Of a stretch of 64,000 nucleotides of DNA, positions 5,010 through 63,495 are shown one piece after another. The notes beneath the pieces are model-generated. The model was not told where the DNA came from. It saw nothing but the letters and a program-made list of their open reading frames with translations, and did no database searches. The stretch is from Malacoraja senta (lineage: Eukaryota), in contig CM075988.1 of assembly GCA_038087875.1 (NCBI GenBank), positions 6,822,001 to 6,886,000 on the forward strand, written 5' to 3'. The position numbers and the translations under genes were made by a program. Numbering within the stretch: the first letter of the stretch is position 1; every line of letters begins with the position of its first letter.

Positions 5010-5245
5010 ACAAAAAAGGACACAAAGTGCTGGAGTAACTAAATTGGTCGGGCAGCATCTCTGTGATAAATAACGTTTCAGATCTTCTTCAGCATCTGAA
5101 GATCTGAAAATCATTCGTGAGCGTCTGAAAAAGAAACGTCACCTATCCATATTCTCTGGAGATGCTGCCTGACCCGCTGAGTTACTCCAGCACTTTGTGT
5201 CCTTTAGTGTACTAACCAGCATCTGCAGCTCCTGGTTTCTACATT
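5010..5245. mobile_element. Palindromic Penelope-like pLTR cassette (degenerate hammerhead)
   Basis: Inverted arms GACACAAAGTGCTGGAGTAACT / AGTTACTCCAGCACTTTGTGTC. Confidence 0.7.
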
Positions 5246-5449
5246 ACTAACAAAGACTATCTTTCTGCTCTAACCCACCCTTCGTGCTCTCCACCTCTCT
5301 CACTTCCTGTCTTACTCTACAGCTTCCCCTGCCACTCCCTGTGCCAGTCCCCCTCTACTCCACCCCAAATCTATTCAACTTTCTCCCCCATGCAAATGGC
5401 TCCAACGCCACACTTGCAGGTTTATTCGTCGACTTCCTCCGTCTTGGTT

Positions 5450-5745
5450 TGTTTTTTAGTATAGAGATACAGCACGGAAACAGGCCCTTCGGCCCACCGA
5501 GTCCGCACCGACCAGCGATCCCCGTCTATCCTACGCACACTCGGGACAATTTACATGAATAGCGAACCAATTAACCTGCAAACCTGTACAGCTTTGGAGT
5601 GTGGGAAATCTGGAGCACCCGGGGAAAACCCACGCAGGTCACGGGGAGAACGTACAAACTGCGTACACACGGCACCCGAGGTCAGGATTGAACCTGGGTC
5701 TCTGGCGCTGTATGGCAGCAACTTTTCATCTGCCCCACCATGCCA
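5450..5745 (-). mobile_element. HE1-like V-SINE
   Basis: Reverse-complement copy of the SINE consensus. Confidence 0.88.
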
Positions 5746-6403
5746 CTCTCCAGTCCATGCTGCTAAGGCAAAGATCTGACCGTTTGTGGGCTGCTAGTTT
5801 CAAACTGATAGATAGCTCGAGGATGGAAAGGATTATTCCTCCCCCCACCCCCCCCCCCCCACTCCAGTGCAAGATGCTACCTCCGTACCTCCACCGCCCC
5901 TTGTTCCCGCATTGCCCATTCTGACTTCATGCTATTTCTCCACCTAATATCTTTAAGGTTCAGTAGTTGCCGATTTATTTTTTTGCTGGCAACTTCTTTT
6001 AAACACAACTACGTTCTTGGTATTTCGATCTTCAGAGTAACAGACCGGTTCCCTTCCCAAAGCACAAAACAAAATTAACTAGGCTCAGATGATCAATTAA
6101 CCATAAGCATCAGGCGCTATGTGTCTTCAGCATAAAATCTCTTGTTAATGTTATCTTTTAAAACAAGCTCCGAGCAAAGTGCACTCTTAATCCCTCCACA
6201 TGCCTGCCTTGGATCCTCACACAAGCAGTTGTTGTTGTACCTCACAAAATATCCTGGGGCATTTCAACTCCGCAATATGAAAAATAATTGCGCTTCTCTG
6301 CATGAAATTATGAATTTCTATAAACTGTGACTTTGGTTGCATATGGGCCTCTGTTTGTGCACTATTATGGCCACCCGGTATACTGTTATTATACCTAGGA
6401 TAC

Positions 6404-6770
6404 GGCACAGTGGTGCAGCGGTAGAGTTGCTGCCTCACAGCACCAGAGACCTGGGTTCGATCCTGACTGAGGGTGCTGTCTGTATGGATTTTATATGTTC
6501 TCCGGGTGACTACGTGGGTTTTCTCCGGGTGCTCCGGTTTCCTCCCACGCTCCAAAGACATACATGTTTTTAGGTTAATTGGCTTCTGCAACTTGCCCTT
6601 AGTGTGTAGGATAGAAATAGTGTCACCTCGGACCCTGTGGATTAAAGGGCCTGTTTTCTTGCTGTATCTCTGAACTAACTTAAACTGAACTAATGTACGG
6701 ATGATTGTGTGCCAGCAAGGACTTGGTGGGCTGAAGGGCCTGCTTCCACGCTGTATATCTAAACTAAAGT
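6404..6770 (+). mobile_element. HE1-like V-SINE with duplicated 3' tail
   Basis: Head GGCACAGTGGTGCAGCGGTAGAGTTGCTGCC. Two successive AAGGGCCTG..GCTGTAT tails (~6645-6690 and ~6730-6770). Confidence 0.85.
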
Positions 6771-7099
6771 AATTAGGGTATTGTTTTTTTTGTTAATGAT
6801 TACGTTTTATCTGGGTCTATTGCATTTACAGTCCTGCTCTGCTTCCAAGTAAGAGTTTCACTGTTCTGTTGTTGGTACATATGATAATGAAACTCTCTTG
6901 ATATGACTCTCGGTAAGTTTTAGAAGGCAAGATCATATGGCTGTCATTTCAACAACATGCGATTAATTTAATGTGAGGTTAAGCATAACGGTTAACTAAC
7001 ATTCAGAACATAGTTCGTGCAGCTCTTTGAACAAACCACTGTCAGAAAGTTCTGTCAATATCTCAATATTATTAACAATGGTTTCAGATTCCACTCTGC

Positions 7100-8460: not shown

Positions 8461-10699
8461 ATTGTATTGTTCATTTTTTTCGGGGAGAAGAGGATCGTTC
8501 CTATATTACAAGGGTAACAATCCTCTTTCTCCTTCTGAACTGAATCACACGGCAGCTGCAGACTTCAACTCACTGACCTGGTTTCTACATTAATTATCTT
8601 CTCAAAAGTACCATAATAGGTCCCTGTGGGCTGATGAAAATCTTGTCCAATAAATATGTGGATTCAGTCCCCTGGGTGTCTAGTATAAGCTCCGTGAATC
8701 CCACCAGTAACTACCATCTTTGTCAGCAGGGTTCAGGCACTTGTTCGTACGAACATAAACAACTGGTTTCCCACCGGTGTTGGTGGTGACTCATTTCAGG
8801 GGTGAATTCCCAGTCATCCGATCCAAGGCAACCACCAAAGTCTGCTTTGAAACAAACACAGCAAAGGTTCAGTCTGAAGAAGAGCCATGACCAGAAATGT
8901 CACTGGTCCAAGTTCTCCAGCGATGCTGCCTGACCTGCTGCGATACTCCAGCACCTTTTGTCCCCCTGTGTAAACCAGTGTGTGCAGTTCCTTGTTTCCA
9001 CATAAAGGGTGCAAATATTCAACATTTGTGGGGAATAACTTGCATATTGACTGGAATGACATTCTGTAGTTGGTTGGGGAGAGCTACAACATGGGGTATA
9101 AACTCTGAAGTTAGGATACTTAAAAAAAAAGATTAACTGCGATGAAGTCAGTCTGTTTGAGACTGTGGATGGTGACGTTCCTGTGACACAAGGCAGTAAC
9201 CTGGGGACAGGTAGGATAGCGAGGGCCAGGATCAGATGGGGAGCTGTTGAAGGGCATTTGGAGGCAAGATAAGGCTGTGATGAACGTGGCGATCCCATGG
9301 TTAAAGGTCGCAGGTGGTTGGGAAGAGAACAGAGGGTGGTGCAGATTGGTGGAAGAGATCCAGATTTGGGGAAAATATTAGACACCAGAACTAAGCAAAT
9401 GATGAATAGTAGGTTGGTGTGAGGCACCACGAGTCACAGGCGGGAATTAAAAAATAGAAAGTGAGATTATATTGGATTAATGGGTGATCGATGGTTGTCA
9501 CAGACTTGATGGGCTGAAGGGTCTGCCTCCGTGCTGTATCTCCAAGACTCCAAAGCACAGAAGGCTGTGGAGGCCTAGTCAATGGATATTTTTAAGGCAG
9601 AGATAGAGATATTCTTGGTTATTACGGGTGTCAGGGGTTGTGGGGAGAAGGCAGGAGAATGGGATTGAGAGGGAAAGATAGATCAGTCACGATTGAATGG
9701 CAGAGTAGACTCGATGGGCCGAATGGCCTAATTCTGCTCCTATCACTGATGAACTCAATATCTTCCTGATTGCCTTCCTAAATGGCCTGGCTCACGTTTT
9801 AAGATTGCATTGTTCATTTGTGAACTTTCCCATCAGAGAATTAGTTGCATTTACAGTATCCTATCAAAACCTTTTAATTGCTTCGCCCATCAGTCAGTCT
9901 CCTGTTCTCCAGGGCATAGCAAGCATGTTTATGCAAATGTTTATTGCTCAGGTTTACTTAGGGATGATTCTAATTTGGAAAAGTTATCTGGAGGCCACAG
10001 AAAGAGTGAGTCAGCAGAAGCTGACTAATGGGAAATTATGCTTTTGAAGGTCAGCACTTATTGCATTCATTTACTGTCCCTCTGCCCACAGTTCTAATGG
10101 AGATGCTAACTCTCATCAACCTATCCATTAACATAATGGCCAGTGATTCTTCATGCTTTAAGCGTTTGTCACTAATCATTGCTCAGTACAATCTCAAGGC
10201 TTGATGTCCATCAAGCCCATTAAAACACTATTATATTCTCGGTCGTGACAAAGTGCTCTTTACCAACTTGGATTACTAGATCCACAGGAGAAGTAGAAAG
10301 CAGAAGGAAGATGAAGATGAGATTTATTTTTCTTGAAAACGATAGATAAAGGAGAACTGGATGAGTTCCATTACAAAATGCAATAAAATTGTCATTTTTT
10401 ACTCTGGGCAATGCTCCCATCCATAACAACAGGGTTATCTGTCTCATAATATCCTGCTGGCAATTGATAATATCCCAGAACATCATGCGTCCAGCCTTCA
10501 TGTTGACGTTATTAAGAGACAAAAGTTTATTGTTTACTCTCCCTGGACTTTGAATGTCGATTCTGATCCATGTATTAGCAAAAGCTTGAGGCTCGCGTTG
10601 AATTGTTTGAGGAATACATTGGGACATGATCAGGATTTGCCATTCATTTTTGCCCACTCTCTGCAAGGCAGTCCGTCAGGATCGAGGATGAATTGAGTA

Positions 10700-16894: not shown

Positions 16895-16996
16895 TTTAAG
16901 AAGGAACTGCAGGTTTCGACCTGAAACGTTGCCTATTTCCTTCGCTCCATAGATGCTGCCTCACCCGCTGAGTTTCTCCAGCATTTTTGTCTACCA
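16895..16996. mobile_element. Short Penelope-like pLTR cassette with 13-bp TSD
   Basis: CAAATTGTGCATG at 16882-16894 and 16997-17009. Contains ..CCTGAAACGTTGCC.. Confidence 0.75.
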
Positions 16997-19660: not shown

Positions 19661-20337
19661 TGAGTTGTCTTTGTGCAAAGGGACTCAGAGCAACCATGGC
19701 AGCCTTACTCCAGCACCAGGTATTCCACATGGGTATGCAAGCTGGCAGCCCCCTGGATGTTGGGACTCAGTGCTACAGTCAGTCATGTGTTTACCCACTG
19801 AGCCATTAAGGCAATGACAGTTCCTCTGCATTCCCACTAAATAAAGGCATCTGAATATGAATACAACAAAGGGGCAGACTGCGGCATGCCTGAGACTGAG
19901 GGCACAGATCTCCCATTGAATGTGAATGTAGGGCACAACCTGTCACGTGGATTAACTGCGTCCTGGCATCTTGTGATCACAGTGCACTTTCTCACAGGAA
20001 TGCCAGCCTTTTGCCGAGTCCACACTGGCAGAACCTGCCCTCTCTGTCCTTATGACAAACTGCTTCCCCTCTCCCTGCCACTCAGTCTGAAGAAGGGTCT
20101 CGACCCGAACATCATCCATTCCTTCTCTCCAGAGGTGCCACCTGTCCCGCTGAGTTCCTCCAGCTTTTTGTGTCTATCTTCGCTGTAAACCAGCATCTGG
20201 AGTTCCTTCCTACACAAAATCCAGAGTGGTGGCCAACAGGATCTCATGGTAACCAAGTCACCTCATTGCAGATGAATAAGCTGAGGTCTGGGCTTAGCCT
20301 TTACAACAGCCTGGTGCATTAATTATCTGTGAAACCT

Positions 20338-20686: not shown

Positions 20687-21078
20687 GTTATCTGGTGTTC
20701 GGTTTTTAAATCCCTTTGCTTTCTCTCGGTGGTGTGTAGGTGATGTGCCGAGTGTTGGCTCACAGTGAAAACACATCTAACAAAAGATATCCATGCAGAC
20801 CCGCGATTGCAACGGGCACCAGCGACATTCTTACATAAAGCAGAAAACCGCTTCATTGAATCCAACTCCCGGGATGAATCGACAATGAATAAGATTAATT
20901 CATTCTCAGGGAGATTGAACAATAAAAAAAATACCCCCAAAGCGGCGTGAATATCGATTCAGTAACATGCCTTGTGGCGATGAATGGAAACAGTCTTCAC
21001 ATTTTCTGTCTCACTGTTCATTGTAAAATGTGTTTGTCTCTGAGACGTGTGTGTGTTTTTTTTTTACAAAGCACTTAC

Positions 21079-21422
21079 TCGTCATCCCTGATGAATTCTT
21101 CCTCTTCTTCCGCCGCCTGCTTGATCACCGGGGCCAAATTCTCCGTCTTCTCGTTGTAATTTCGGAAGCAAACGTTGAGCTTCTCATCGAAGTCGTTGAC
21201 CAGGTCTTCCATGGACTTGAAACTCATCATCTCGGTGGTGAAATTGTCCAGCTCGCTCAGCTCCTCCAGGTGGGAGATGCCTGCCGTCCTCACCGACCCC
21301 AGCTCGTTCAGGTTCTCCTCTTCCATCGGCTGCTTCTGCCGTCCCCGTCCCCCGGCTCGCTCGGGCTTCAGCTCGTAGAAATCCTGCCATTCCTCGTCTA
21401 GGGTGACCAGCGGAGCTGCCAT
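21079..21422 (-). CDS. FEZ1: FEZ/UNC-76 family (fasciculation and elongation protein zeta) gene, first coding exon; FEZ1-like, paralog identity uncertain
   Basis: Translates MAAPLVTLDEEWQDFYEL...LSELDNFTTEMMSFKSMEDLVNDFDEKLNVCFRNYNEKTENLAPV...EEEEEFIRDDE, matching the FEZ1 motif SFKSMEDLVNEFDEKLNVCFRNYN. ATG at 21422 in context GCGATGG. Ends GA|GTAAGT (phase-2 donor at 21078). CpG-rich. Confidence 0.93.
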
Positions 21423-21663: not shown

Positions 21664-22124
21664 GTGTAGGAAGGAACTGCAGATGGACTCAAAACGCTGA
21701 AGGGTCCCCACCCGAAACATCACCCATCCCTTCTCTTCTGAGATGCTCCCTGTCCCGCTGAGTTACTCCAGCATTTAGTTCCAATCTCCTAATTTAATCA
21801 ATGGTACTTTATTGTCACATGTTGCCAGAATGATGCGCAGGAAGGAACTGCAAGTGCTGGTTCACCCCGAAGATAGAAGAGTGACACAAAATGATGGAGT
21901 AACTCATGAGGGTCAGGGAGCATCTCTGGAGAAAAGAGTTGATGTTGCTTTGGGTTGGATCCCTTCTTCAGACTGAAAGTAGAGGTTGGGGGGGGATAAA
22001 TTGGAGGCAAGAAATGGTGAGTTTATCCCCCCCCCCAACTTAACCCGCTCAATCCAACCTCCAAAATGATGGAGTAACCCACTGCGATACTCCAACATTT
22101 TGTGTCTATTCGACCAGAATGATG

Positions 22125-23846: not shown

Positions 23847-24048
23847 TTAAGAAGGAAGTGCAGATGCTGGAAAATCGAAGGTAGACAAAAATGATGGAGA
23901 AACTCAGCGGGTGAGGCAGCATCTATGGAGCGAAGGAAATACGCAACGTTTCGGGTCTGAAGAAGGGTTTCGACCCGAAACGTTGCCTATTTCCTTTGCT
24001 CCATAGATGCTGCCTCACCCGCTGAGTTTCTCCAGCATTGTTGTCTAC
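23847..24048. mobile_element. Palindromic Penelope-like cassette with hammerhead core and 16-bp TSD, inserted in a CR1 relic
   Basis: CTTATACACAGAGAGT at 23831-23846 and 24049-24064. Inverted arms around CTGAAGAAGGGTTTCGACCCGAAACGTT (23957-23984). Confidence 0.85.
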
Positions 24049-25719: not shown

Positions 25720-26649
25720 TAACTGTGCTGCCCTCGATTGCTCTCTTGTGCCTCACGGATTTTAATTGCTCCACAATTGGTGACACCAGTTCAGCAGCAA
25801 TAACATTGAGCATTTGTCGTCCTTTCATACACTTCACTGCTTTGCTACACCCATCTCTTCATTAAACCCATCTCTTTCGCCAATCTTCTGGTCATCCATC
25901 CTAATACCCCAGTGTCAGATTAATTTTATAATCCTTTAGGAACTGTCTTTATACTTCATTAAGAACCTTTAAAAATGGAAGTTATTGTGGCTTTGGATTT
26001 TCAGGTCCACTTTACCATTGATTGTCATATGTACTCGGTTTAGGTTTATTATTGCCTCATGTAGCGATGTACAGTGAAAAGTGTTTGGTAATGCCATACA
26101 TGGATACAGTCAAGACAAACACAAGTGCAAAAGGTAGAGCGAAGTGAAAGATATCAGAAAACGAAACATGGTTCGCAGCGTTGTAGCGTAACAGTTCCAG
26201 AGAAAAAACTGTCCGCAATGAGGTTGGTTGGAGGATCGGGACCGCACCCCCAGCTTTTGGAATGAACTGTTCCAAATTACATTACCCGCCTGCATTACCC
26301 AGTCTGAAGAGGGGTCCCAACCTGAAACATTCAGTCTGGAGAAGAGCCCCGACCCGAACCGTCGCCTTCCATGTTCTCCAGAGATGCTGCCTGACCCGTT
26401 GAGTTTCTCCAGCATTTTGTGTCTAGCTTAGAATTAATCTTTGCCAATATTGCAGGTAGGTAATGTAATTCTGAATAGTTCTGCCAAAAGCCAGGGGTGT
26501 ACTCCCAGCACTTTCTGTCTTTCTTTAGTAAATCAGCATCTGCAGTTCCTTGTTATTTCAATACTAAGCTGTTGTGCTTCCAAACTACAACCTACACTGT
26601 CACGGGAGGCACAGTATGAAAATGGAATATTTGAGAGAGTAAGAGTGTG

Positions 26650-27300: not shown

Positions 27301-27399
27301 TCTGCTGCAGCAGGTTGGAAATGAGACATTGCAAAGAAGACACACCTTTCTGTTTACTGATTTGCATTCAGAAGAATCTGCTGCTCTCAAACATAAAGA

Positions 27400-27665
27400 G
27401 AAAATGGTGAAAACACTCTCCAGGTTTGGCAACATCTGTGGAAAGAGAAACAGAGTTGACAAAGTCTGATGAAGGGTGTATGACCTGAACTGTTAAAGAA
27501 GGGTCTCGACCCGAAACGTCGCCTATTCCTTCTCTCCATAGATGCTGCCTCACCCGCTGAGTTCCTCCAGCATTTCTGTCTACCTGAACTGTGTAGCTCT
27601 TTCCACAGATGCTGCCTGACTTGTTCAGTGTTCCCAGCATTTCTTCCATGTCTTTCTTTCAGCGC
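27400..27665. mobile_element. Older palindromic Penelope-like cassette with a younger one nested inside (27494-27581)
   Basis: ACCTGAACTGT duplicated at 27483-27493 and 27582-27592. Confidence 0.7.
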
Positions 27666-30993: not shown

Positions 30994-31427
30994 TGTTTTC
31001 AAAGAACTATATTGAAAACGTTGCTTCTGTGAGTTTTCAGATTCAGGAATATTATAACAAGGTGGACAAACAATGTTGGGCTTTCATGGAAACTTGTGTT
31101 TTTGTGGAGTGACAGAATTATATTGTTGGGTATTTTATAATTACATCTAATTTGATTTAAATTCATGAACGGACAAAGAAATTGTAACAATACCTGCAGT
31201 CCCTGAAAGTGGCAACACAAGTATATTAGGAGCTGAAGAAAGGTCTGACTTCAGACCCAGTCTGACGAAGCGTCTCGACCCAAAACGTCACCCATTCCTT
31301 CTTTCCAGAGATGCTGCCTGATCTGCTGAGTTACTCCAGTATTTTGTGTCTATCTTCAGTTTAAACCAGCATCTGCACTTCCTTCCTACACATTTCATCT
31401 GCAGTTCCTCCCTACACAAGAAAGGAT

Positions 31428-41489: not shown

Positions 41490-41798
41490 TATAGGATTCA
41501 GCCGCGGGATTGACTTACCATCACCCGGCGGGGTCACAACGTCAGAAGCCTGGATCGCCTCAGCGCAGAGGAAGAACAAAGCGGGAAGAGACAGAGACTT
41601 TAAGACTTTTGCCTCCATCACAGTGAGGAGGTGCCTGGTGAACTCACTGTGGTGGATGTTAATTTGTGTTTATTGTGTGTTTTGTTATTTATTATTATAT
41701 GTATGACTGCAGGCAACGAAATTTCGTTCAGACCGAAAGGTCTGAATGACAAATAAAGGAATCTCTAATCTCTAATCTCTAATCTCTCTAATCTCTAA
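41490..41798 (+). mobile_element. Second copy of the (CTCTAAT)n-tailed retroposon
   Basis: Near-identical to 36385-36680. Confidence 0.75.
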
Positions 41799-42084
41799 TC
41801 ACCTGCGGTTGCAGAGGGAAAGTACCTGGGGAAGGGGTGGTCTGGATGGGAAGGGATGAACCTGGGAGTTGCAGAGGGAAAGGTCTCTGCAGAAGGTGGA
41901 AAGGGGTGGAGATGGGAAGATGTGACTGGTGATGGGATCACATTGGAGGTGACAGAAATGTCGGAGGACAGAAATGTTGGATGGTCCACATTTGTGTTCA
42001 GGCTGCGGTGACTATACATGGTGCATGTTTTCAATTATAAAGGGTGTATGGATTAATGAAAGGAAATCAAAGCAGTATCAAACT

Positions 42085-42920
42085 GAAGACAGACATAAAA
42101 TGCTGGAGCAACTCAGCGGGACAGGCAGCATCTCTGGATACATGGGATGGGTGGCATTTCGGGTCGAGACCCTTTTAGTTTAGTTTTAATTTTAGTTTTA
42201 GAGAAACAGCGCGGAAACAGGCCCTTTAGCCCACCGGGTCCGCGCCGACCAGCGATCCCCGCACATTAACACTATCCCACACCCACCAGGGACAATTTTT
42301 ACATTTGCCAAGACAATTAGCCTACAAACCTGTACGTCTTTGGAGTTTGGGAGGAAACTGAAGATCTTGGAGAAAACCCATGCAGGTCACGGGGAGAACG
42401 TACAAACTTCGCACAGACAGCACCCGTAGTCAGGATCGATTCCGGGTCTCCGGGACTGAATTCCCTGTAAGGCAGCAACTCTACCGCTGCACCATCGTAA
42501 CCACCCTTCTTCTGACTGAGAGTCAAGGGAGAAGGAGACACAGAGATAAGGAAGTGTAAGGTGTGAAAACGAGACATCAAAGGAGATGCAGATCATGGAA
42601 AATGTAGAATCAGACATTGTTAGCTAGGAGAAGGTGACAACAAAGCATACAGAGATAAAATTTAGTCAGGGGGACAGTCAGACTGGTCGGAAAACTAAGA
42701 AGGGGGAGGGATGGAGAATGAGGGAAAGCAGGGGTTATTTGAAGTTAGAGAAATCAATATTCATAGCGAAATATGAGGTGCTGTTCCTCTAATTTGCACT
42801 GGGCCTCACTCTGACACTGGAGGAGGCCCATGATAGAAAGGTCAGTGTTGGAATGGGAGAGGGAGTTAAAGTGCTCAGCAAAAAGGAGGTCAGTAGGTTT
42901 AGGCGGATTGTGCGGAGGTC
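42085..42920 (-). mobile_element. Penelope-like 3' portion interrupted by an HE1-like SINE (42175-42497)
   Basis: GIY-YIG C-terminal relic (SHSNTDLSIMGLLQCQSEAQCKLEEQHLIFR) at ~42760-42860. The hammerhead motif is split by the SINE (..GAGACCCTT | ACCCTTCTTCTGACT). Confidence 0.75.
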
Positions 42921-43599
42921 TTAATAGTGGGACGTGGATTTAATGTATGGATACTTGCTGCCTTAACTGTATCATCACAGTTAGAAAACATACCCACAAG
43001 GGTTTCGCTTAAAGTCATAGACTGCCCTAGAAAATCTCCCAGACTGAAAGCTCCTTACAATTCACATGGAATAAATTGGTTTGCGTTTGAGCTGTTAAAT
43101 GTTCTGTGTGTTGAACTGGCCTTTTGGCTTGTTTGCTCCCAGCCAGTCACTTACGGATCCATTAACCTAATGGGCTGTGTGAAGGACAATATTTGGTTAA
43201 GTGCTGCTCTGAGCCGGGGTTCAGGCTGCTGGAGAAATCAGCGTGACATGGCCACAGGATAAGTATTGAATTACAAACTACAGCAAGCATCCTTCATCCT
43301 ACTTTGTGTTTAAGCAGAAACCTTTCCATCTTATTTATCCATCACCCCGCAGGTTTTATTTTTGACAATAATGGCTAGGCTCTAGTCTCCAACAGAGACT
43401 TGGATCAGATTATGACAGTTACTCATGTGACTCAATGGTAAAGTTTTTAACTGAGAGATCAGAAAGTTCTGAGTTCAAATCTCACTCCAGAGCGATGGTA
43501 CTTAACTTGTTTTGCAGACAGCATCCAAATCACTTCTGAGGGCCACGCATGTGAATCATTTTATTTCAAGCAAACTTAACCAAATACTGATATTTTTTA

Positions 43600-43790
43600 A
43601 CTAGACACAATGTGTTGGGGTAACTCAGCGGGTGAGGCAGCATCTCCGGAGGAAAAGGATGGGTGAGGTTTCGGGTCTGAAGAAGCGTCACTTATCTTTT
43701 TCCTCCAGATGCTGCCTGGCCCACTGAGTTACTCCAGCACTATGTGTCTATCTTCGGTATAAACCAGCATCTGCAGTTCCTTTTTCACAA
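43600..43790. mobile_element. Palindromic Penelope-like cassette with ~12-14 bp TSD
   Basis: ACTGATATTTTT at 43586-43597 and 43791-43802. Confidence 0.75.
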
Positions 43791-44155: not shown

Positions 44156-45169
44156 ACACTTAGGTTGTGTCTTATTCACGGGTGGTTACTTTGAATCGAG
44201 GAAAACTTGCTGACACTCCAGTTATGAACAGGCTCTGCTGCATGCAGAGGTAGATACCTGTCGAGGCAGGTGGGAGCAGTGACAACCTGTTCAATCCAAA
44301 GTGACCGCACTCCAAAACCAACCTCTCTGATTAAATACTAGGAATTCCTTAACTGCTTCCTTCCAATGGCTGAAGAGCTACTCCACAAATAAGATCATAA
44401 ACATATGTGATAGGAGCAGAATTAGACCATTCAGCTCATCAAGTCTAATCCGCCATTCAATCATGGCTGATCTATCTCTCCCTCCCAACCTCATTCTCCT
44501 GCCTTCTCTCCATAACCACTGACACCCATAATAATCAAGAATCTATCTATCTCTGCCTTAAAAATATCCATTGACTTGGCCTCCACAGCCTTCTGTGCAA
44601 AGATTTCCACAGATTCTCCACCCCCTGACTAAAGAAATTCCTCCCCATCTCCTCCTTAAAGGAACGTCCTTTAATTCTGAGGTTATGACCTCTAGTCCTA
44701 GACTCTCCCACTAGTGGAAACATCCTCTCCACGTCGAATCCATCCAAGCCTTAAACTATTCGGTAAGTTTCAATGAGGTCCCTCCTCATCCTTCTAAACC
44801 CCAGCGAGTACAGGCCCAGTGCCGACTAATAACAGTGGAGATTCCGTCCATTTAGCTCCCATTACAGAGCAACCCCAGGGAAAAATGCAGATTTCACAGC
44901 CTCACTAAAGTCCTTGACTCCGTCAATCATGAGAGATTGTGGAGCAGGTTCCTCAGAGTTGGCCTTCTGCAGAAATTCATCTCCATTTTACGTTTGCTTT
45001 TTGCTGGGATGCAAACCACGATCCTAACCAGCAGAATCATCCCACAGCCCAGCAGCAAACTGGTGTCAAGCAAGGTCACGTCAATGCCTGGTACTTTTAT
45101 CAATCATTCTTGCTGTAGCGGGCACCTCACCTCCTGAAAGATGGTCCCGACCCAAAATGTCACCTATCC

Positions 45170-45965
45170 ATGTTTGAGTTTAGTTTATTGTCAAGTGTAT
45201 TGAGGGACAGAGAAAACATTTTGTTGCATGCTAACCAATCAGTGGAAAAACTATACATTATTACAATCGAGCCATCCACACACAGTGTACATATTCCTGA
45301 TAAAGGGAATAATGTTTATTGCAAGATAAAGTCTAGCCAAATCTGATAAAGATATTCCAAGGGTTTTCATTGAGGTTAATAGTAGCTCAGGGCCAGTCTC
45401 GAGATGTTGATAGGATGGTTCAGTTGTCTGATAACAGCTGGGAAGAAACTGTCCCTGAATCTGGAGGTGTGCATTTTCACAATTTTGTATCTCTTTCCTG
45501 ATGAGAGAGGGGAGAAGAGGGTGTAACCAGGGTGAGACTCATCCTTGATTATGTTGGTGGCCTTACCGAGGCAGCATGAAGTGTAAATGGAGTCAAATGG
45601 AAGGGAGGTTGGTTTGTGTGATGGTCTGGTCTGCGTCCACAATTCTCTGCAACTACTTGTGGTCTTAGATGGAGCTGTTCCCAAACCACCCTGTGATGCA
45701 TCCCGATAAAATGCTTTCCACGGCACATCTGTAGAAGCTAGTGAGAGTTGTTGGGGACATGCCAAACCTCCTAAGCCTTCTAAGGAAGTAGAGGTGTTGG
45801 TGTGCTTTGTTGTCCATTGCTTCAATATGGGTGGTCCAGGACAAGCAGGTGAGATTTATTCCTAGGAACATAAAGCTTTCAACGATTCTTACCGTCAATG
45901 CATAGTGGGGTATGTGTACCGCTTTGCTTCCTGAAGTCGATGACTATCTCCTTTGTCTTGCTGAC
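45170..45965 (-). mobile_element. Rex1-clade LINE 3' fragment
   Basis: VESFMFLGINL..KAHQHLYFLRRLRRFGMS..FYRCAVESILSGCITGWFGNS; TSRFRDSFFPAVIRQLN. Confidence 0.85.
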
Positions 45966-48139
45966 AGCAGGTCAGGCAGCATATTTGGCGAACATGGATG
46001 GTGTATTTTCGGGTCAGGACCCTTCAGTTTGAAGAGGGGTCTCAATCTATTACCTCACCCACCCAAGTTCTCCAGAGATGCTGCTTGGCCCACTGATTTA
46101 CTCCAACACTTTGTGTCTTTCTTTGCAAAATATATTTTGGTTTGCCTTATTCATAAGGCCATAAGGAGTAGGATTAGGCCATTTGGCCCATCAAGTCTAC
46201 TCTGCCATTCAATCGTGGCTGATCTATCTCTCCCTCCTGCCTTCACCCCATTAACCTCTGACACCTGTGCTAATCAAGAATCTATCTATCTCTGCCTTTA
46301 AAATAACCATTGACTTGGCCTCCACAGCCTTCTGTGGCAAAGAATTTCACAGATTGAACACCATCTGACTATTTTCTTTCAAATTTAAAAAAAAACTCCT
46401 GCTTTATTTTCTCCTTACTTAAACTGCTTCATCTATGTTTACTCTTTACTGAATAATTGTCCAGACCTTCATTGGATTTAGGATTGATTTTCTTGGAAGG
46501 AAATCTGTTCCATATGTTAGTCATTACAAAATGGAAAAAAAACCTCTGATATTCTCCAGTGCCCATGGAATCATAACACATCCAAAGAAAAAACAATCCT
46601 TCTCTCTGGTTTCTTTCTGTCCAAACCTGCTGATAAATTACACAAAGTCTCCAATTTTTGTAATGTTTGTAATAAAATATAAAATATATTTCAGATTTTG
46701 TTCAGAGTATTTTTGAAAGAAATGCTGCTTCAAAAGCGGTAATGGAGACACAAGGAACTGCAGACGCCAGGAATCTTGAACAATACATGAAATGCTGTGT
46801 CTGAAGAAGGGACCCAATGTGAAAAGTTGCCTGTCCATCCCCTCCACAGATGCTGCCTGACACACTGAGTAACTCCAGCATTTTGTGTTTTCATTAAAGA
46901 CATTCACTTATTTTTTTGGCAAGGAGGAGGGATGGGATGGTGTCTGGCCATGAAGTAAACGCTTTCCCCCTCCAGAACTTCCACATGTGGTGGCAAAAAA
47001 AAGTACGTCTTGCATAATTTCAGTTTACCTGTACATATCATATTCCACCAGGCACAGTTACCCCCAGAGTTACCCCCAGTTTTACTGAAGGCAAAGTACT
47101 GCAGGTGCTGAAAATCGTCTATTAGGAGCAGAAGATGTTGGAAAGTCTCTTCATTGAGGCAACGTCTTGTGGTTTGAGACCTAGTTTCAGTTTGTTGACC
47201 CTCTGAAGAAAGATAATGGACCTGAAATGTTAATTCTGTGCTGCCTGACTTGCTGAAGACTTCCTGCCTTTTAATACTACATGTAAGTTTCCTGAACATA
47301 ATTAATAATTATAATAATTCATTTTATTTACTGGCGCCTTTCTAAAACCCAAGGACACCTTACAAGGCATAGAATCACAAAAATACAAAACACATAATCG
47401 GAAAAAATTAAATATAAAAACACAATAGTACACAAATCAAGGACAGAATTCAATTTCAAAAGCACAAAAAAAAATAGTCTTGCAATTTCACATATTGGTT
47501 GACAGTGGGGTGATAGATGCTCCAATGTATACAAGGCTGTTACTTCAGTTACTCATGAAACCAGACAGCCTGCTATCTACTTCCTGGTCCTTGTGATCAT
47601 AACAGAGGCACTTTGCAGCTCAGAAACAGACATTGAGAACGTTGGATGTGGCCCGGATATGTCGTGTGTTTCAACTTGTAGGTGAAATAAAACAAAACTG
47701 CAGATGCTAGACGGCTAAAATAGAAACAGAAAATGCTGGAAATACTCAGCAGGCCAGGCAGCATCTGCGGAAAGAGAAACCGAGTCAATGTTTCTGGTGA
47801 AAGGCCCTTCGTCAGAACCGAAACACTGACTTTGTTTCTCTTCCCATAGATGTGGCCTGACCTGCAGAGTATTTCCAGTATCTTCTACTTTTGTTACTAT
47901 CTACTGTTCTATATTTTAGTACTTTGATGGCGCTGTTGGATGGCTTTAATAATTCTCTTGCTGCACAGGGATAATGTCAAAGTCTTCGCCAGTAGTGTGA
48001 AACACAAATGCGTAGGAAGGAACAGCAGATACTGGGGTAAAACATTAAGTTTGCTTCAGAATGAAGAAGGTTCCAACCTAAAACATTGTCCCCCTATTCC
48101 CTCCAGAGATGTTGACTGAGCTGCCAAGTTGCTCCAGCA

Positions 48140-48412
48140 GTGGGCGATCATTTCGTTGAACACTTTCGCTCAGTCTGTCTGGGCCTACATGATCTCCTGG
48201 ATGCAAAACATTTTACCTCCCCTTCCCATTCCCATGCTGACCTTTCTGTCCTGGGCCTCTGTGAGACCCTCTGTCACTGCTTACCCTCTGTGATTCCTGC
48301 TACTGTCTTGCTCCTCAACCATGTTCTGACCCAGACCAGTCTGAAGAAGGGTCTCGATCTGAAGCATCACATGTCCATTCCCGCCAGAGATGCCACCCGA
48401 CCCGCTGAGTTA
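48140..48412 (+). mobile_element. Penelope-like GIY-YIG relic and pLTR (continues at 49113-49165)
   Basis: GDHFVEHFRSV..AKHFTSPSHSHADLSVLGL. The pLTR is broken at GCTGAGTTA by a MITE. Confidence 0.75.
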
Positions 48413-49109
48413 AGGGCCTGTCCCACTTACGTGTCCTTGGCATGCAAATTACGTGACCTCGTCGTCGCGTTGAGGCGCACGGGCATCGTGTGGCCGCGCG
48501 GGACCGGTCCCACTGAGAAGCGCGGAGGGGTATGTAGTTGTGCGCGACATCGCGCAGGGCTCCGAAATTTTTGTAGCAAACTAAATCTCCGCACGCCAAC
48601 GGCCTGTCGCGGAACTGACGGCCAAAGTGGGACAGGCCCAAGACCCTGGCGCGACGCAACGTCTCACCATCAACAGCAGCAGAAGCAGGCAAACGATCGC
48701 CAAGCTCGGCCTGGGGCTCACGGCCGTTGCGGATCCGGATCCGCCCCCACTTCTACTCCCAGAGCGGGGCCAAGAAAATTGAAGATAGACACAAAATGCT
48801 GGAGTAACTCAGCGGGACCGGCAGCATCTCTGGAGAGAAGGAATGGATGACTTTTCGGGTCAAGACCCTTCTTGCAGACTGAAGAAGAGTCTCGACCCGA
48901 AACATCACCCATTGCTTCTCTCCAGAGATGCTGCCGGTCCCGCTGAGTTACTCCAGCATTTTGTGTCCATCTTCAAATGACGTCATGCGCTCCAGACAGC
49001 TGTGCGGGCGCATGAAATCACGCGCGACCTTTGCGGGACCGTTGCTCCTTAACGCGACCACGAGGTCGTGTAATTAGCGTGCCAAGGACACGTAAGTGGG
49101 ACAGGGGCT
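48413..49109. mobile_element. PIF/Harbinger-type MITE (family E) containing a nested palindromic Penelope cassette (48781-48974)
   Basis: TIR AGGGCCTGTCCCACTTACGTGTCCTTGGCA / TGCCAAGGACACGTAAGTGGGACAGGGGCT, TTA on both sides. Confidence 0.85.
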
Positions 49110-49794
49110 TTACTCTTGCATTTTTGTGTTTTTTTCAAGATTCCAGGATCTGCAGTTCCTTATATCACCAATAGTTTGCTGTGGGATGGAGTCAAGGGAC
49201 TCCCATTAAATACAAAGCCTTTATTGACATATGGTCTTCAACATGCCCTTTCCAGCAGGTGCTGACTATTCTCTCTCCTTTACGAGCTCTTCCCTGCTCT
49301 TGGTTTTCACAAAAGCAGCTCGGTGATACACTAGGGACAATTTACAATTTAAAGCAGCCAATTAACCTACAAATCTGTACTTCTTTGGTAGTGTGGGAGA
49401 ACACCGGAGAAACCCATGCGTTCACAGGGAGAACGTACAAATTATAGTACAAGATTCTAGGCAGTAGTTCTACCACTGAGACACTGTGCCGCCCCTTGTC
49501 TGTGCTGCAGTTCATGATGACTCAGCTGAATCGGACGCTAACCAAAACACCAAGTGCTGGAGGAAATCAGCATGTCAGGCAGCATCTGTGGATTGAATGG
49601 ATAGGCGAGATTTTCGGTCGGGTCACCTCTTCACACAGATCACTAACCTTGCTGTAACCAGCCATCTTAAAAGCGTCCAAAGGAATTAGCCTCCACTGCC
49701 TTCTGAGGCAGAGAATTCCACAGATTCACAACTCTCTGGGTGAAAAAGTTTTTCCTCATCTCCGTTCTAAATGGCCTACCCCTTATTCTTAAAA

Positions 49795-54184: not shown

Positions 54185-57100
54185 TTTAATTTAGTTTAGT
54201 TTAACGAGGCCTTTTGGTGCACCGAGTCCGTGCCAACCAGCGATCACCCCATAATCTAGCACTATCCTGCACATTAGGGATAATTTTACAATTACTGAAT
54301 TACCAAAGCCAATTATCCTACAAACCCGTTTGTCTTTGGAGTGTGGGAGGAAACCGGAGCACCCGGAGAAAACCCACGCGGTCACAGGGAGAACGCAGAA
54401 ACTCTGTACAGATAGCATGTAAGGAAGCAACTCCACCGCTGCGCCACCGTGCCACCTCCTGCTGATGTTTGCAAACTGTTGGGCAGTTTTGATCCTTCCA
54501 GTGCTTTGTAACTGTGATCATTGGAATGAAATCTCATTGTTAAGGAAGAAAAACAGCGAGGAACAATATGCGTACCGACAAAACAGCTCTGCTTTAAGGG
54601 ATAATCAGAAATAAATCACATAATGCTTCCAGATAGATTCAGTCATTCTAGAGAATGCTGGCAAATGCGGAAATTCACATGTAATAACACTGCACTCTTC
54701 TATCAAGGGTAAGGATTAGAAGCTGTTGATTCTACTGAGCTCTGGTTTAGAAGCAAGTTAGTTACCTCTGTGACTGCAGTATTGCCATTAAGCTGGCGAG
54801 GCGATGGTTGCTCTCCATGTAACTGCCAAAGCTGCTGTTTATTCAGTGGGATAAGGAAAGGTCACCGTGCAGAGTTCCTGTTTATTTTGCACGATAAGGG
54901 CTATTCACTCAACAATTGCATGAGTTGTCATCTTCGTCCTACTTTGAAAGTTATTAATAAAATAACAGTATTTGATGGTGTTGAGCTCCACTGCACGTTC
55001 TGTTATCCAACAGATAGTGTTTCTAATGTCTCTTTCTAAGCACAAATTTCCTAACTGCAAATCTTAAAAGGTTATTTTATCAGCTGCAAATTATTACCCA
55101 CTGCAGCCTGTTGAAAGGAGAGGTTGCTTTATAGTTAGAAAAATTAAAGAATATAAGGAGACTATGTATAGGATTACACAGAACTTTTATTTTGCACTTT
55201 AGACTTTAGAGATACAGTGTGGAAAGAAACCCCTTTGGCCCACTGAGTCCACTCTGACCAGCAATCATCCTGTACCCTAACACTATCCTACACACTAGGG
55301 ACAATTTACAATTTTGCCAAAGCCAATTAACCTACAAACCTGTATGTCTTTGGAGCGTGGGAGGAAACCAGGACACCAGGAGAAAACCCACGCGGTCACA
55401 GGGAGAACGTATAAACTCCATACAGACAGCACCCGTAGTCCAGATTGAACCCAGGTCTCTGGCGCTGTAAGGCAGCAACTCTACCACTGCGCCACCGTGC
55501 CGTCCTACATTTTTCAACAGTATTGTATCTTCCTGTGCAAGGCTGTAGTAGAATCAGGAACTTTGGGACATCCGAGAGTAGTGCAGTTGTAAACTAACAT
55601 GCAGTCGAGAACAAAATGAAGGGGCTCTCGGAGAGGAAGTGAGAGTAGAGAGAGAAAGGCATTTGTAACGTTGGTGACAACAATGTAAATAGAGACATAA
55701 AGAACTAACTTTACCCAAAATAGTAATCTTGTGTGAAGGCATAAAGAACTGCAAATGTTGGTTAACGAAAAAAAGACACAAAATGCTGGAGTAACTCAGC
55801 AGGTCTGTCCGCATCTTTGAAGAACATGGAAAAGTGATATCTCAGGTTGGGACCCTTCTTCAGACGGATCCCGACACCCAGACCTGATGAAGGGTCCTGA
55901 TCTGAAACGTGATCTTGTGTGTTTAGTGTGACTGATCCTTGTACTTAATCTGAAACTGACCCACACTTAATTTGCATTTATTGAACTAGTGAAAGGGAAT
56001 ATTTATTAATAGGCCGTGCAACCTTTCAAACCTGGATTAGGCAAATATAATCAATCTGAAATTGATGTTATATCACATACGGTCGATATATTAGCTTCAA
56101 GCTTGGGAAATTTCGCATCTTGGTCAGAAGGATCATGGTTTAGAACATAGAACAGCACAGCACAAGAACAGGTCCTTCGGCCCACAATGTCTGTGCCGAA
56201 CATGATACCATGACCAAAGATTAACACAGAGTGCTGGAGTAAGAAGTCTGAAGAAGGGTCCCAAAACATCACTCATCCTTTTTCAGATGCTGCCTGACCT
56301 GCTGAGTTACTCCAACTTTGTGTTTAACTTTGGTATAATCCAGCATCTGCAGTTTCTTTGTGTTTAACTTTGGTATAATCCAGTTTCTTGTTTCTGCATG
56401 ATGCGAAGACCATCTCTTTATGTGTCTTGCATATAATCCATATACCTACATTCCCTACATATCTATACACCTATCCAAAAGTCTCTTATGTCATCCCAAT
56501 GCAGTAAAATCATACTGCATATAAGCCCACTCATGCATAAGTACAAGACTGCAATGATATGGCGTAAGAAGAGTAGATTTCTTCTGAGGCAGTTCACAGA
56601 GGCTCCACATTTCTGCCGCCTACTTGTATCCTTCGCATTTCAAGTTCTTAAAAATACCGAGTTGTTTGTTACCCTTTAAGGCCTGTTGTCGTGGCAGTGG
56701 CAGTGGGTCGGTGTTACAGGGGTCAGCCTGGCCTGGCAATGTTGTCAATGTGGACCACCGCATCTGATCTACGTGCTCATCAAATAATAATGTGATCTGC
56801 ATGTTCTTTGAGCAAATAGGAACTGCTGTTAGTCAAGGCAGTCGAAGTTCAACATGTCACTGCGGACGAAGATTTGGGAGTTTTCTTTCTGTCCTGGGCC
56901 TCCTCCTTCAGTTTAGTTTGGTTTAGAGTTACAGTGCGAAAACAGGCCCTTCGGCCCACTGAGTCCGCACCGACCAGCGATCCCCGTACACTAGCACTAT
57001 CCTACAAACAAGGAGCACGTTACAATTTTACTGAAGTCAATTAACCTACAAACCTGTACATCTTTGGAAAGTAGTTGGAAACCGGAGCACCCGGAGAAAA

Positions 57101-60530: not shown

Positions 60531-60755
60531 GAAGATAGACACAAAAAGCTGGAGTAACTCAGCATCTGTAACAGTAACAGTATCAGGCAGCATCTCTAGA
60601 GAGAGGAATGGGTGATGTTTCGGGTCGAGACCCTTCTTCGACCCGAAACGTCACCCATTCCTTCTCTCCAGGGATGCTGCCTGTTCCGCTGAGTTACTCC
60701 AGATTTTTGTGTCTTATCTCCGGTTTAAACCAGCATCTGCAGTTCCTTCCTGCAC
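60531..60755. mobile_element. Palindromic Penelope-like cassette with 14-bp TSD
   Basis: AGCTCATTTCAGCA at 60517-60530 and 60756-60769. Head-to-head partial hammerhead motifs at ~60612-60655. Confidence 0.82.
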
Positions 60756-61659
60756 AGCTCATTTCAGCAACTTGGCTCTCATGGACGAATTGAGCACGAG
60801 CCTGATTCCATGCTTCATAGGTCTATTTGTCTACAACTCTTCAGGAAGATAGTGCAAATGAAAGCATGGATAGTTCACGAGGGACACGGAGGGTTTTACA
60901 TTCCTGAAGCATGGGGGGGTGGTGGAGTGGGGGGGGGGGGGGGGGGGGGTGAGGCCAAACCTGCACAAGCATTTCACAGGACCTGGAATAGCCATCTTTG
61001 TGGGGATATTTGCTGGCACCTTTAAACTACCTTAGCACGAGCATGCAAAACTGACAGCAGTTTCAAACAGGAGGGGGACATTAGTCGATTAATGGATTAG
61101 TAAACGGCGCCAGAGTATTGCGACTTTTGCATGTGTAAACTATGCAAAAAGAATTTCACAGTGCAGTGCGCATGTGACAACACACAACCATTGAAGTGGA
61201 AGGTTGCAGTTTAGTGAAGAATGGCACATTTGAGAAGCATCCAGCCAAGCACTTCAATCACAAAGGTTTAGCAAGCTATGAACCTTATGTGGGAAAATGG
61301 GATTAATATAGATGAGTGCAATGGTCAGCATGGATGTGGTGGGCTGAAGGGCCTGCTTCTGTAATGTGCAGCTCAATGAGTGTATAAAATGCAGGGATGA
61401 ATTGGACTAAGAAATGTAGGTTAGTATAAAGTACCAAAATGGTCTGGCAGGGTGTTCTTGAATGCAAATAAATTGAAGGCATTTAACTGAGGGCTCAGAT
61501 AGATTTAAGTGAAGATTGTATTACAGACATTACCAACATGGCAGTGTTGCAGAAATGGGCTACTCAACATTTCTGCTTATAGGGTTTTCAGTCAGGGCAA
61601 AGGGTTGAAGATTGGGTAGGAAGGGGGCAGTGGTTGGAGGAAGGAAGTGGGTTTGATGC

Positions 61660-62335
61660 TATAGTAGGTGGTATTGTGGACAGTGAAGATGGTTATCAAA
61701 AATTACAGCAGGTTTAACAGCTGTGCAAATAGGGTAAAGAATGGCTAATGGAGTTTAATGCAGTTAATTGTGAGGTGTTGCATTTTTGGAAGCCTGGGAA
61801 TGTTGTGGAGCAGAAGTATCTATGAACACAGGAGCAAGGATCACTCTAGATTGAGTGGCAAAGAATGTTTTGGTACATTGGTCTTCATCAGGCAGGGTAT
61901 TGAGTCTGAAGAAAGGTCTCGACCCAAAACATCACCCATTCCTTCTCTCCAGAGATGCTGCCTGTCCTGCTGAGTTACTCCAACATCTTGTGTCTATCTT
62001 TGGTTTAAACCAGCATCAGCAGTTCCTTTTTACATATTGAATATAGAAGTTGGGACATTATGATACAGTTGTACAAGACGTTGGTGAGGCCACAATTGGA
62101 CTATTATGTTCGGTTTTGGTCACTCTGCTATAGGAAGGATGTAGTTAAGCTGGATAGAGCGCAGAAAAAATTATGAGGAAGTTGCCAGGTCTTGAGGGTC
62201 TGAGCTACAGGGAGAGGTTGGGCTGTCTATGACTTTAATCTTTGCAGCGCAGGAGGCAAATGGGTGATCTAATAGAGGTGTATAAAATCATGACGGAAAT
62301 TGATAGGGTGAAACCACAGAGTCTTTTCAGAGTAA
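61660..62335 (+). mobile_element. Degenerate CR1 LINE fragment with a Penelope cassette inserted at ~61904-62034
   Basis: QLYKTLVRPQLDYYVRFWS-like peptide. TATTGA on both sides of the insert. Confidence 0.7.
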
Positions 62336-62850
62336 AGTCGGAGAACTGAATGTTCATACCATTAGGTTGTAAGCAAGTCAAGTGGAATAGAGGTGCTGTT
62401 CCAGCAGTTTGTGTGTGACCTCAGTCTGACAATGGAGGAGACTCAGGACAGAAAGGTCAGTTTGGGAATGGGAAGGGGCATTAAAATGGTTTGCAACTAG
62501 AAGATCCAGCAGGACTTGGTGGACTGAGCACAAGTGTTTGGCAAAATGGTCGCCAAGTCTAGGTTTGGTCCAAGAGGTTGGTACAAGAGGCCACATTGGG
62601 AATACCGGATGCAGTAGACGAGGTTAGAGGAGGTGCATGTGAACATCTGTCTCACCTGGAAGGACGGCTGGGGTCCCTGAATGGAGGTGAGGGAGAAAGT
62701 ATAAGGACAGTTGTTACATCTCCGGTTTTTGCAGGGGAAAGTAACTGGGGAGGGGGTGGTTTGGGTGGGAAGGGATCAATGAACCAAGAAGTTGCGGGGG
62801 GAGCGGTCTATGCGGAAGGCAGAAAGGGGCTGGGATGGGAAGAAGTACCT
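62336..62850 (-). mobile_element. Penelope-like element GIY-YIG endonuclease relic
   Basis: RLGDHFAKHLCSV..VANHFNAPSHSQTDLSVLSLLHCQTE..KLLEQHL..LQPNGMNIQF. Upstream Cys-rich piece (..CIRYSQCGL..). Confidence 0.8.
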
Positions 62851-63174
62851 GTACCTTAGCATATTTGTGCATATGACAACATATTGGGCTGGACCTGACT
62901 TGACCTTTCTCACATTCAACAGGTAGCTGAGCTGTAACATGTAGATGCTATGCCAAACCCAGCTGAATATCTTGCATCTCGGCTGTTCTCACTCGCAGCC
63001 ACGTTTTTTTCGAAAATAATTTTATTTATACATTTAAATTATTCTCAGTTAAATTTTTACAAATATACATAGAAAGAAAACATCAAATAAAAACGAGATC
63101 GTATTTGCAACTCTGCTGAATCTGTAGGTCACCTCCGTCTCTGCCTCTGCTCGCCTGATGTTAGACGTAAAAAA

Positions 63175-63495
63175 AAGACACAAAGTGCTGGAGTAACTCA
63201 GCGGATCAGGCAGCATCTCTGGAGAAAAAGGATGGGTGATGTTTAGGCTCGAGATCCTTCTTCCGACTGCAGAAGAGCCCCTGACCCTAAACGTCACCCA
63301 CCTTTTTCTCCAGAGATGCTGCCTGACCCATAAATTACTCCAGCACTTTGTGTCCATCTTCGGTATAACCTAGCATCTGCAGTTCCTTTTGTACACACGT
63401 CACCTATCCATGTTCTCCAGAGATGCTGCCTGGCCCGCTGAGTTACTCCAGCACTTTGTATCTTTTTGTAAACCTGCAACTGCAGTTCATTGTAT
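63175..63495. mobile_element. Palindromic Penelope-like cassette with an extra tandem arm
   Basis: One inverted arm followed by two direct ACGTCACC..AGAGATGCTGCCTG..TTACTCCAGCACTTTG arms. Confidence 0.75.

Follow-up and report, generated by a model that had tools for sequence, protein, structure and literature searches.

Head-to-head, two-tailed insertions of putative Penelope-like element ends with a minimal hammerhead motif in a skate genomic window

Why does a short hammerhead-like motif recur so often in a 64,000-nt stretch of the Malacoraja senta genome (GCA_038087875.1, contig CM075988.1, positions 6,822,001 to 6,886,000 of the forward strand; hereafter the window)? A first-pass annotation had read it as a window-wide family of minimal hammerhead-ribozyme motifs in the pseudo-long terminal repeats (pLTRs) of Penelope-like elements (PLEs). 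We assign a probability of about 70% to the reading that the repeats are mostly decayed PLE ends that were inserted by reverse transcription primed from both cut strands, on RNA that its hammerhead had left uncleaved. As such, the hammerhead is no surprise: its minimal form has been documented at PLE ends from cnidarians to reptiles. The added value of the window lies in the anatomy of insertion and not in the ribozyme: a head-to-head, two-tailed architecture bounded by target-site duplications (TSDs) is the main feature of the repeat, and it was absent from the first-pass annotation.

All 17 positions that had been listed for the motif carry it or a variant, displaced by at most 2 nt, as found by a pattern scan (CTGANGA, then GAAA) together with a profile built from the window copies. 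The exact 28-mer has a single occurrence (35593-35620, minus strand), and nine sites in the window match it with up to three mismatches, against none in 100 shuffles. The profile returned 54 arm matches in 34 clusters, which cover 5180 nt or 8.1% of the window; later insertions split at least two arms, so the number of distinct arms is slightly below 54. Each arm measures 90-135 nt, the motif forming its 5' part (hammerhead, then tail), and several subfamilies can be distinguished. The earlier statement that a hammerhead-bearing repeat occurs every few kilobases holds for the repeat and does not extend to intact ribozymes, which number two native copies and one chimera under a strict descriptor. 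Contigs from three DNA runs made on related organisms show the bin that contains the 23847 unit at a depth about five orders of magnitude above that of unique bins; contig depth of such runs gives no copy number, and the ratio says only that the family is very abundant outside the window too. The density of 54 arms per 64 kb is far above the 4,000-9,000 copies per genome given for coelacanth and Xenopus, the latter counts referring to intact motifs (Cervera and de la Pena 2014, PMC4209133), and the accessible portion of supplement file 2 of that paper has no shark, skate, Callorhinchus or Leucoraja entries. Exact-pattern scans for further copies returned none in metagenome contigs, viral contigs or prokaryote genomes, as expected for host DNA. 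Our literature searches found no description from skates, rays or cartilaginous fish in general; Repbase, Dfam and most subscription papers lay outside them, so the family may well be catalogued.

The arrangement of the arms is far from random. Thirteen neighbouring pairs lie head to head and join at or near the hammerhead (two of them, 27379 and 47092, being weak), compared with a mean of 0.66 and a maximum of 4 in 2000 random placements. The 3' ends of the 54 arms are bimodal, with 24 short (profile columns 80-108), 25 long (column 112 or beyond) and 5 other, and it is at the short end, too, that contigs of related skates part from the sequence in bulk. Eight units have exact flanking repeats of 10-16 nt, and two more have repeats of 8 nt and 9 nt; the search tried 34 unit definitions, and random position pairs reached at least 10 nt in 5 of 297 cases. 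In 7 of the 10 TSD-bounded units (16895, 21664, 21837, 23847, 29325, 43598 and 60531), one long and one short tail face outward, with end points about 35-40 nt apart, while 27494 is ambiguous, 55736 includes a core-only arm and 40765 is solo. Inter-arm junctions vary among pairs, and 23957 and 43677, which belong to different subfamilies, have an identical 3-nt microhomology join. At least four TSD units (16895, 21664, 23847 and 29325) combine a truncated long arm with a short arm that retains more 5' sequence, and at 16895 and 21664 the long arm is a stub without overlap with the short one. Partner arms tend to be closely related, though not in every pair: of 11 scored pairs, 4 consist of arms that come near to being mutual best matches. 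As to the tails themselves, arm columns 50-57 can pair with 78-83 or with 108-115, giving two mutually exclusive stems with a common 5' strand and with no covariation among the window arms. One stem would close near each 3' end point, and the two may mark the two reverse transcriptase (RT) start sites.

The 5' ends are equally telling, since 33 of the 54 arms begin at profile columns 0-4, just before or at C3 of the core, and a partner arm or a TSD delimits many of these. No arm begins exactly at the cut site; the nearest start is column 28, seen twice, and one arm scored at column 31 reads back to column 28. Because the 5' ends cluster at the hammerhead 5' edge and not at the cut site, the insertion templates were most likely uncut RNA.

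We therefore propose, for the insertion itself, that the element protein would cut the target in staggered fashion and so provide two primers, that one cDNA would be primed at the distal tail site and the other at the proximal site, and that the two cDNAs would be joined through 1-7 nt of microhomology. The non-overlapping stubs at 16895 and 21664 fit both primers using one RNA; overlapping arms would require two RNAs or strand displacement. Comparable behavior has been described in vitro for PAc, a Poseidon element of Anolis carolinensis, in which both target strands are cut and extended and reverse transcription has two internal start sites, one on either side of the tail (Frangieh et al. 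2024, PMC11167929). PAc mainly uses uncut RNA as its substrate, and its hammerhead cleaves only with protein and is dispensable for insertion in vitro (PMC11167929). PAc also resembles the skate repeats in having a hammerhead at the junction of pLTR and open reading frame (ORF), followed by the tail, and its two RT start sites are reminiscent of the two skate tail end points. However, PAc belongs to the Penelope/Poseidon clade whereas the skate relic has an extra Zn-finger-like linker, and the skate repeats have no ORF start evident in helix II. Insertions of PLEs with an endonuclease (EN) show an inverted 5' copy, a 30-40 bp tail at one end and TSDs of 8-10 bp (PMC8557442, PMC3846280). The Neptune-clade members among them are like the skate repeats in the inverted 5'-truncated copy, the one-end tail, the TSDs, the microhomology joins, plus a GIY-YIG domain at the C-terminus with a Zn-finger-like linker; unlike them, most skate insertions are cut down to 90-280 nt of hammerhead plus tail, lacking an ORF and having a pLTR that is minimal or absent.

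Short and very abundant, the TSD-bounded units preserve, for every event, the two points of priming and the two 5' stops, so the origin of inverted ends and one-sided tails in PLEs (self-priming versus both-strand priming) and the role of the hammerhead could be tested merely by counting in a skate assembly. The hammerhead was probably selected in the source elements, where it likely serves slow, dimer- or protein-assisted RNA processing, and after insertion it probably drifts neutrally. For the 5' stop point we prefer an initiator-like TCAGT about 3 nt before C3, a sequence that we take to resemble the Inr consensus. Many templates would start there, and priming 95-135 nt downstream would yield mainly mini-insertions, a proposal to which we give slightly less than even odds. 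Still more tentatively, skates may hold PLE mini-insertions on the scale of short interspersed elements (SINEs), perhaps 10^5-10^6 of them, each arising from two cDNAs that the element protein would start at two tail sites of a capped RNA beginning about 3 nt before the core. If so, the skate genome would serve as a deep-sequencing library, made by nature, of how PLEs insert, pointing to two-ended priming and not to fold-back, with the hammerhead uncut in the transposing RNA.

The hammerhead part of the arms could be parsed base by base. Its majority state is CUGAAGA, an extra A, a 4-bp helix II with a 4-nt loop, GAAA, C/G, UC and a 2-bp helix I, which agrees with the published consensus of metazoan PLE minimal type-I hammerheads (PMC4209133), and every core column of CUGANGA, GAAA and UH has the expected majority state; the parse given in the first-pass annotation was thus correct, helix II having 4 bp here. 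The published motifs are alike in CUGANGA with an extra nucleotide, G10.1-C11.1, GAAA, a short helix I, a CG palindrome in place of helix III, and a distribution of thousands of mostly solo copies per genome with some opposite-strand pairs; the skate helix II and helix I sit at the short end of the published range (PMC4209133). All 11 core bases are kept in 13 of 31 core-covering arms, and the extra A between A9 and G10.1 in 38 of 41. The 10.1-11.1 pair is G-C in 18 of 39 cases and G-U in 10, and the palindromic 15.2/16.2 dinucleotide, without a loop III, is CG in 17 of 46, with the CpG-decay products CA in 15 and TG in 7. Helix I is paired at 2.1-1.1 in 24 of 28 arms and at 2.2-1.2 in 23 of 23, its third pair in just 5 of 21. 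With CpG columns and alignment edges excluded, the core reached an identity of 300/323, helix II of 234/285, loop II of 55/83, the spacer after the cut site of 622/878, and the three tail blocks of 436/470, 676/762 and 330/368. The conservation check proposed earlier was consequently borne out for the core relative to loop II and spacer but not relative to the tail blocks, and helix II showed no covariation in this small sample of related subfamilies; core and tail both appear to have been kept constant among source subfamilies. By every testable sequence feature, the motif would be a minimal PLE hammerhead at a PLE end.

A PLE origin is further supported by protein relics. A profile of two GIY-YIG relics found 107 protein relatives, in several of which a PLE-type RT C-terminus stands together with a cysteine linker and a GIY-YIG domain; among seven looked up, the six named come from skates and rays (Leucoraja, Rhinoraja, Hypanus, Narcine). 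Pfam GIY-YIG scores in the relatives fall below the curated cut-off (E 6e-4 to 0.09), Pfam gave no match on the two EN relics scanned, and a word-indexed protein search with a 44-aa EN relic as query returned nothing where the profile search succeeded. Using tblastn with nine relatives as queries, we located all four GIY-YIG relics that had been noted before, each on the strand of its hammerhead; the match is strong for 42738-42894 (E to 3e-13) and for 48140-48277 (E to 1e-12). The order at the four loci, on one strand, is EN C-terminus, pyrimidine-rich pLTR, hammerhead and tail, with hammerheads 29782, 35620, 42514 and 48341 lying 80-330 nt downstream of the relics. Together with the core parse, these relics uphold the earlier attribution to a Penelope-like origin with a minimal type-I hammerhead. 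The pLTRs of different copies are alike only in low-complexity C-rich sequence, and no pLTR reference could be built from them. The longest relic (62334-62889, 555 nt), absent from the first-pass annotation, covers the post-RT region, the linker and GIY-YIG to the C-terminus, its ORF interrupted by one stop and frameshifts. Its linker reads Cys-x4-Cys-x2-Cys, as in relatives P0019, P0038 and P0092. An extra Zn-finger-like linker marks Neptune and Nematis (PMC8557442), and because of this linker, common to Nematis, we call the element Neptune-like. The repeats thus look like the hammerhead-plus-tail ends of Neptune-like, EN-bearing PLEs, the clade being suggested by the linker.

Several observations weigh against insertion of uncut PLE ends by two-ended priming. 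A TSD search allowing one mismatch in 15 further units found none, the palindrome at 48779-48974 has two short ends, the unit at 40765 is solo, and 3 of the 11 scored pairs are no closer than average. The profile begins just 3 nt before C3, so the pile-up at column 0 is partly a model edge, and 6 of the 33 arms inspected clearly run on into pyrimidine-rich pLTR. As for the ribozyme, helix I has only 2 bp in most copies, helix II shows one two-sided change in about 150 cells (a small window sample of related subfamilies), 10.1-11.1 is changed on both sides in 1 of 39 cells, and the choice of seeds by their CTGA motif inflates core conservation despite edge trimming. The relics at 29620-29679 and 35942-36007 are short and, alone, weak (tblastn E about 0.1), and the window holds neither a full-length element nor an RT core, so that the source element and its clade are inferred only.

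Among other explanations, a non-autonomous, SINE-like master RNA of its own, consisting of hammerhead plus tail or of the whole palindrome and amplified in trans by PLE protein, would suit the share of the window occupied, the common 5' edge, the several subfamilies and the depth of the repeat bins, which gives no copy number. It is nevertheless unlikely, as the differing pair junctions argue against a palindromic master and the same hammerhead-tail is joined to pLTR and EN at four loci. The common 5' edge might alternatively be a 3' splice site, with a pLTR intron ending at a pyrimidine tract plus CAG and the mini-insertions derived from spliced RNA. A pyrimidine tract followed by CAG does stand just before helix I in 5 of 6 pLTR-bearing copies, and the Drosophila virilis Penelope intron ends at the helix I 5' end (PMC4209133; intron in PMC2377424); but arms without pLTR have no common upstream exon sequence beyond 0-2 nt, and most of them keep the AG, so we consider splicing rather improbable. 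A joining bias at the self-complementary CAG-N-CTG is a third candidate account of the 5' stop.

Fold-back self-priming, in which a cDNA or antisense template would snap back at the hammerhead and copy itself into a palindrome, was put forward for head-to-head PLE junctions (PMC3846280). The CAG-N-CTG at the 5' edge is self-complementary, and in some pairs private changes are common to both arms (48779/48876, 92% alike; 5009, both without helix II), so fold-back could account for near-identical pairs such as 48779/48876. On the other hand, a single snapped-back cDNA cannot give a distal tail plus a missing 5' part, so simple fold-back fails for at least the four TSD units that pair a truncated long arm with a short arm reaching further 5', and as a general account it has a low probability.

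Another reading is that the genomic copies still work as ribozymes and, in dimer form, cleave transcripts of the host or of repeats, for instance within the FEZ1 intron. Dimer cleavage has reportedly been described by Lunse et al. in 2017. Every core position is kept in two native copies (23957 and 35620), and minimal PLE hammerheads weakly cleave as dimers in vitro (PMC4209133). However, these two are the only arms among the 31 core-covering ones that are fully intact in core, helix II and palindrome, so that a window-wide family of working ribozymes finds no support; G12, C11.1, C15.2 and G16.2 sit in CpGs, and the losses are mostly transitions. A relaxed descriptor gave 6 matches (shuffle mean 0.52, maximum 3), and adding the palindromic helix III left 3 (mean 0.25, maximum 2), the third, 27466, being a chimera created by nested insertion. 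The minimum-energy fold is a hammerhead in neither intact copy, both adopting other structures; folds of single arms failed to beat shuffles in 4 of 6 cases, and the hammerhead was the minimum-energy fold in no case. The intact core 23957-23984 is predicted to be sequestered in a hairpin. At 35593-35620 (minus strand) with the next 12 nt, the 5' core half in this subfamily can pair with the spacer past the cut site, an alternative pairing that would hold the ribozyme inactive. The suggestion of dimer cleavage at these loci found no footing, no same-strand neighbouring pair having two intact cores, and the Anolis data contain no RNA ends at the cut site (PMC11167929). Taken with the broken FEZ1-sense arms, these points make working ribozymes very improbable. 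An Rfam scan of the window found no hammerhead family at E up to 1, a null that says little on the minimal type, since helix III is absent.

Cores at 32-33 nt spacing occur in the window (26304, 26336), and rare back-joints of the same kind are seen in other runs; copies of this type with intact cores would be obvious candidates for dimers. Non-LTR retrozymes are likewise non-coding, PLE-related repeats with type-I hammerheads, but they form head-to-tail arrays of complete hammerheads, whereas the skate repeats are dispersed, inverted and mostly broken (PMC7229834; bioRxiv 10.64898/2026.07.22.740005). One chondrichthyan genome is reported with tandem retrozymes (bioRxiv 10.64898/2026.07.22.740005). 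A retrozyme array, defined by two or more successive units with complete hammerheads, was looked for in the window and rejected, none of the 4 tandem adjacencies having two intact cores.

That the palindromes are MITEs (miniature inverted-repeat transposable elements, DNA transposons) or microRNA hairpins with an incidental hammerhead match can be dismissed: the long hairpins (-164.8 kcal/mol, z -21.8) and weak Rfam microRNA matches are outweighed by the unequal ends, the variable centres, the 8-16 bp TSDs, the many solo arms and the direct linkage to GIY-YIG relics. A class II MITE, with equal terminal inverted repeats and a fixed short TSD, was rejected on the difference of about 35-40 nt between the ends and on the TSD range, and the five Rfam microRNA matches (34-63 bits against gathering thresholds of 100-200) are palindrome artefacts. 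For annotation, it matters that the repeats mimic both classes. Palindromic copies would be expected to form double-stranded RNA of about 100 bp in introns.

The host gene of part of the repeats is FEZ1, whose intron, with minus-strand sense, spans 4766-21077, so the earlier placement of copies inside a FEZ intron is right. Their relevance to FEZ1 is not borne out, because the three sense-strand arms are each broken: helix II is deleted in 5009-5092, the 5' core is missing in 12588-12686, and in 13547-13642 G8 is changed and G12 lost. All arms and relics are compiled in Table 1.

Table 1 FEZ1 exons, repeat arms and PLE relics in the window (positions are those of the window).
Feature	Position	Strand	Remarks
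FEZ1 coding exon, downstream boundary of intron	4652..4765	-	tblastn with skate FEZ1 P0110/P0111, E 3e-16
Head-to-head pair: short arm (-), long arm (+)	5009..5242		Both 5' halves without helix II
Solo long arm	8871..9002	+	Helix II and 15.2 mutated
Three arms	12588-12686(-), 13052-13185(+), 13547-13642(-)		Minus-arm cores both broken
Inverted 18-nt long-tail stub + short arm	16895..16996	+	13-bp TSD
Long arm with ~20 nt pyrimidine-rich pLTR	20084..20218	+	GAAA minus one A
FEZ1 first coding exon	21078..21422	-	99% identical to Leucoraja erinacea, Amblyraja radiata FEZ1
Inverted long-tail stub + short arm	21664..21777	+	8-bp TSD
Long arm with pLTR (-) + short stub (+)	21837..22113		12-bp TSD
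5'-truncated long arm (-) + full short arm (+)	23847..24048		16-bp TSD; intact core 23957-23984
Tandem cores 32 nt apart (26304, 26336) + tail fragment	26301..26560	+	Both cores mutated
Older head-to-head pair with younger short arm (27494-27581, 11-bp TSD) inside its helix II	27379..27677
Chimeric descriptor-positive core	27466		From nested insertion in 27379..27677
Short arm (-) + 5'-truncated long arm (+)	29325..29502		10-bp TSD
EN C-terminus relic (29620-29679), pLTR, hammerhead 29782, short tail	29620..29880	+	C11.1 changed
5'-truncated long arm within SINE	30463..30583	-
Long arm	31259..31392	+	G12 -> A
Head-to-head pair: long arm (-) from 3 nt upstream of cleavage site, short arm (+)	35336..35524
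EN C-terminus relic (35942-36007), ~320-nt pLTR, intact minimal hammerhead 35620-35593, short tail	35518..36007	-
Solo short arm from 5 nt before C3	40765..40869	+	9-bp TSD (weak)
Relic between RT and Zn-finger linker	41797..41969	-	tblastn E 5e-6
EN C-terminus relic (42738-42894), ~220-nt pLTR, hammerhead, short tail	42077..42894	-
SINE splitting hammerhead of 42077..42894	~42175-42502
Truncated short arm (-) + long arm (+)	43598..43790		12-bp TSD
Arm 45134-45175(+) and pair 45965-46126	within 45134..47272
Arm 46799-46895(+) with inverted long-tail stub; weak arms 47092-47272	within 45134..47272
Head-to-head pair: long (-), short (+)	47683..47893		Divergent subfamily
Arm 48062-48141, EN relic 48140-48277, hammerhead 48341	48062..48412	+	A15.1 changed
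Tail of 48341 hammerhead	breaks at 48412, resumes 49113-49170
Near-perfect palindrome of two short arms	48779..48974		Arms 92% alike; nested in inverted-repeat element
Solo short arm	49539..49636	-	Broken core
Long arm (-) + core-only arm (+)	55736..55911		10-bp flank repeat, may be tail-derived, not true TSD
Long arm after inverted short-tail stub	56245..56358	+
Short arm (-) + 5'-truncated long arm (+)	60531..60755		14-bp TSD
Solo long arm	61903..62037	+	G12 -> A
Longest PLE ORF relic	62334..62889	-	tblastn E 3e-36; translation
Head-to-head pair + tandem third arm	63157..63496

The window also holds repeats of other kinds. An inverted-repeat element occupies 48413-49112, where it interrupts the 48338 arm and carries the 48779 palindrome within it. 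Its terminal repeats measure about 30 bp and it shows a TTA duplication; we take it to be a Harbinger-like MITE. A second abundant repeat of about 300 nt, presumably of the V-SINE/HE1 type, has roughly 20 copies in the window (e.g., 2281-2571, 5448-5742, 30695-30994, 36798-37103, 42175-42502 and 55209-55502), one of which interrupts the hammerhead at 42503, where a short duplication is present. Relics of several retrotransposons of the long interspersed element type, called by Pfam RVT_1, Exo_endo_phos and zf-RVT, lie at 51094-53768 (+), 32123-32785 (-), 59355-60456 (-), 15592-16620 (+) and 7432-8454 (-), and an assembly gap of 200 N falls at about 34057-34256. Finally, the predicted proteins P0001, P0005, P0014, P0019 and P0031 contain a GIY-YIG relic of the skate PLE family, probably through gene-model contamination or exonisation. 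Four of the five are named from skates or rays (e.g., neuromedin-U receptor 1, NYAP1-like), so that EN relics sit inside skate and ray proteins annotated as other genes.

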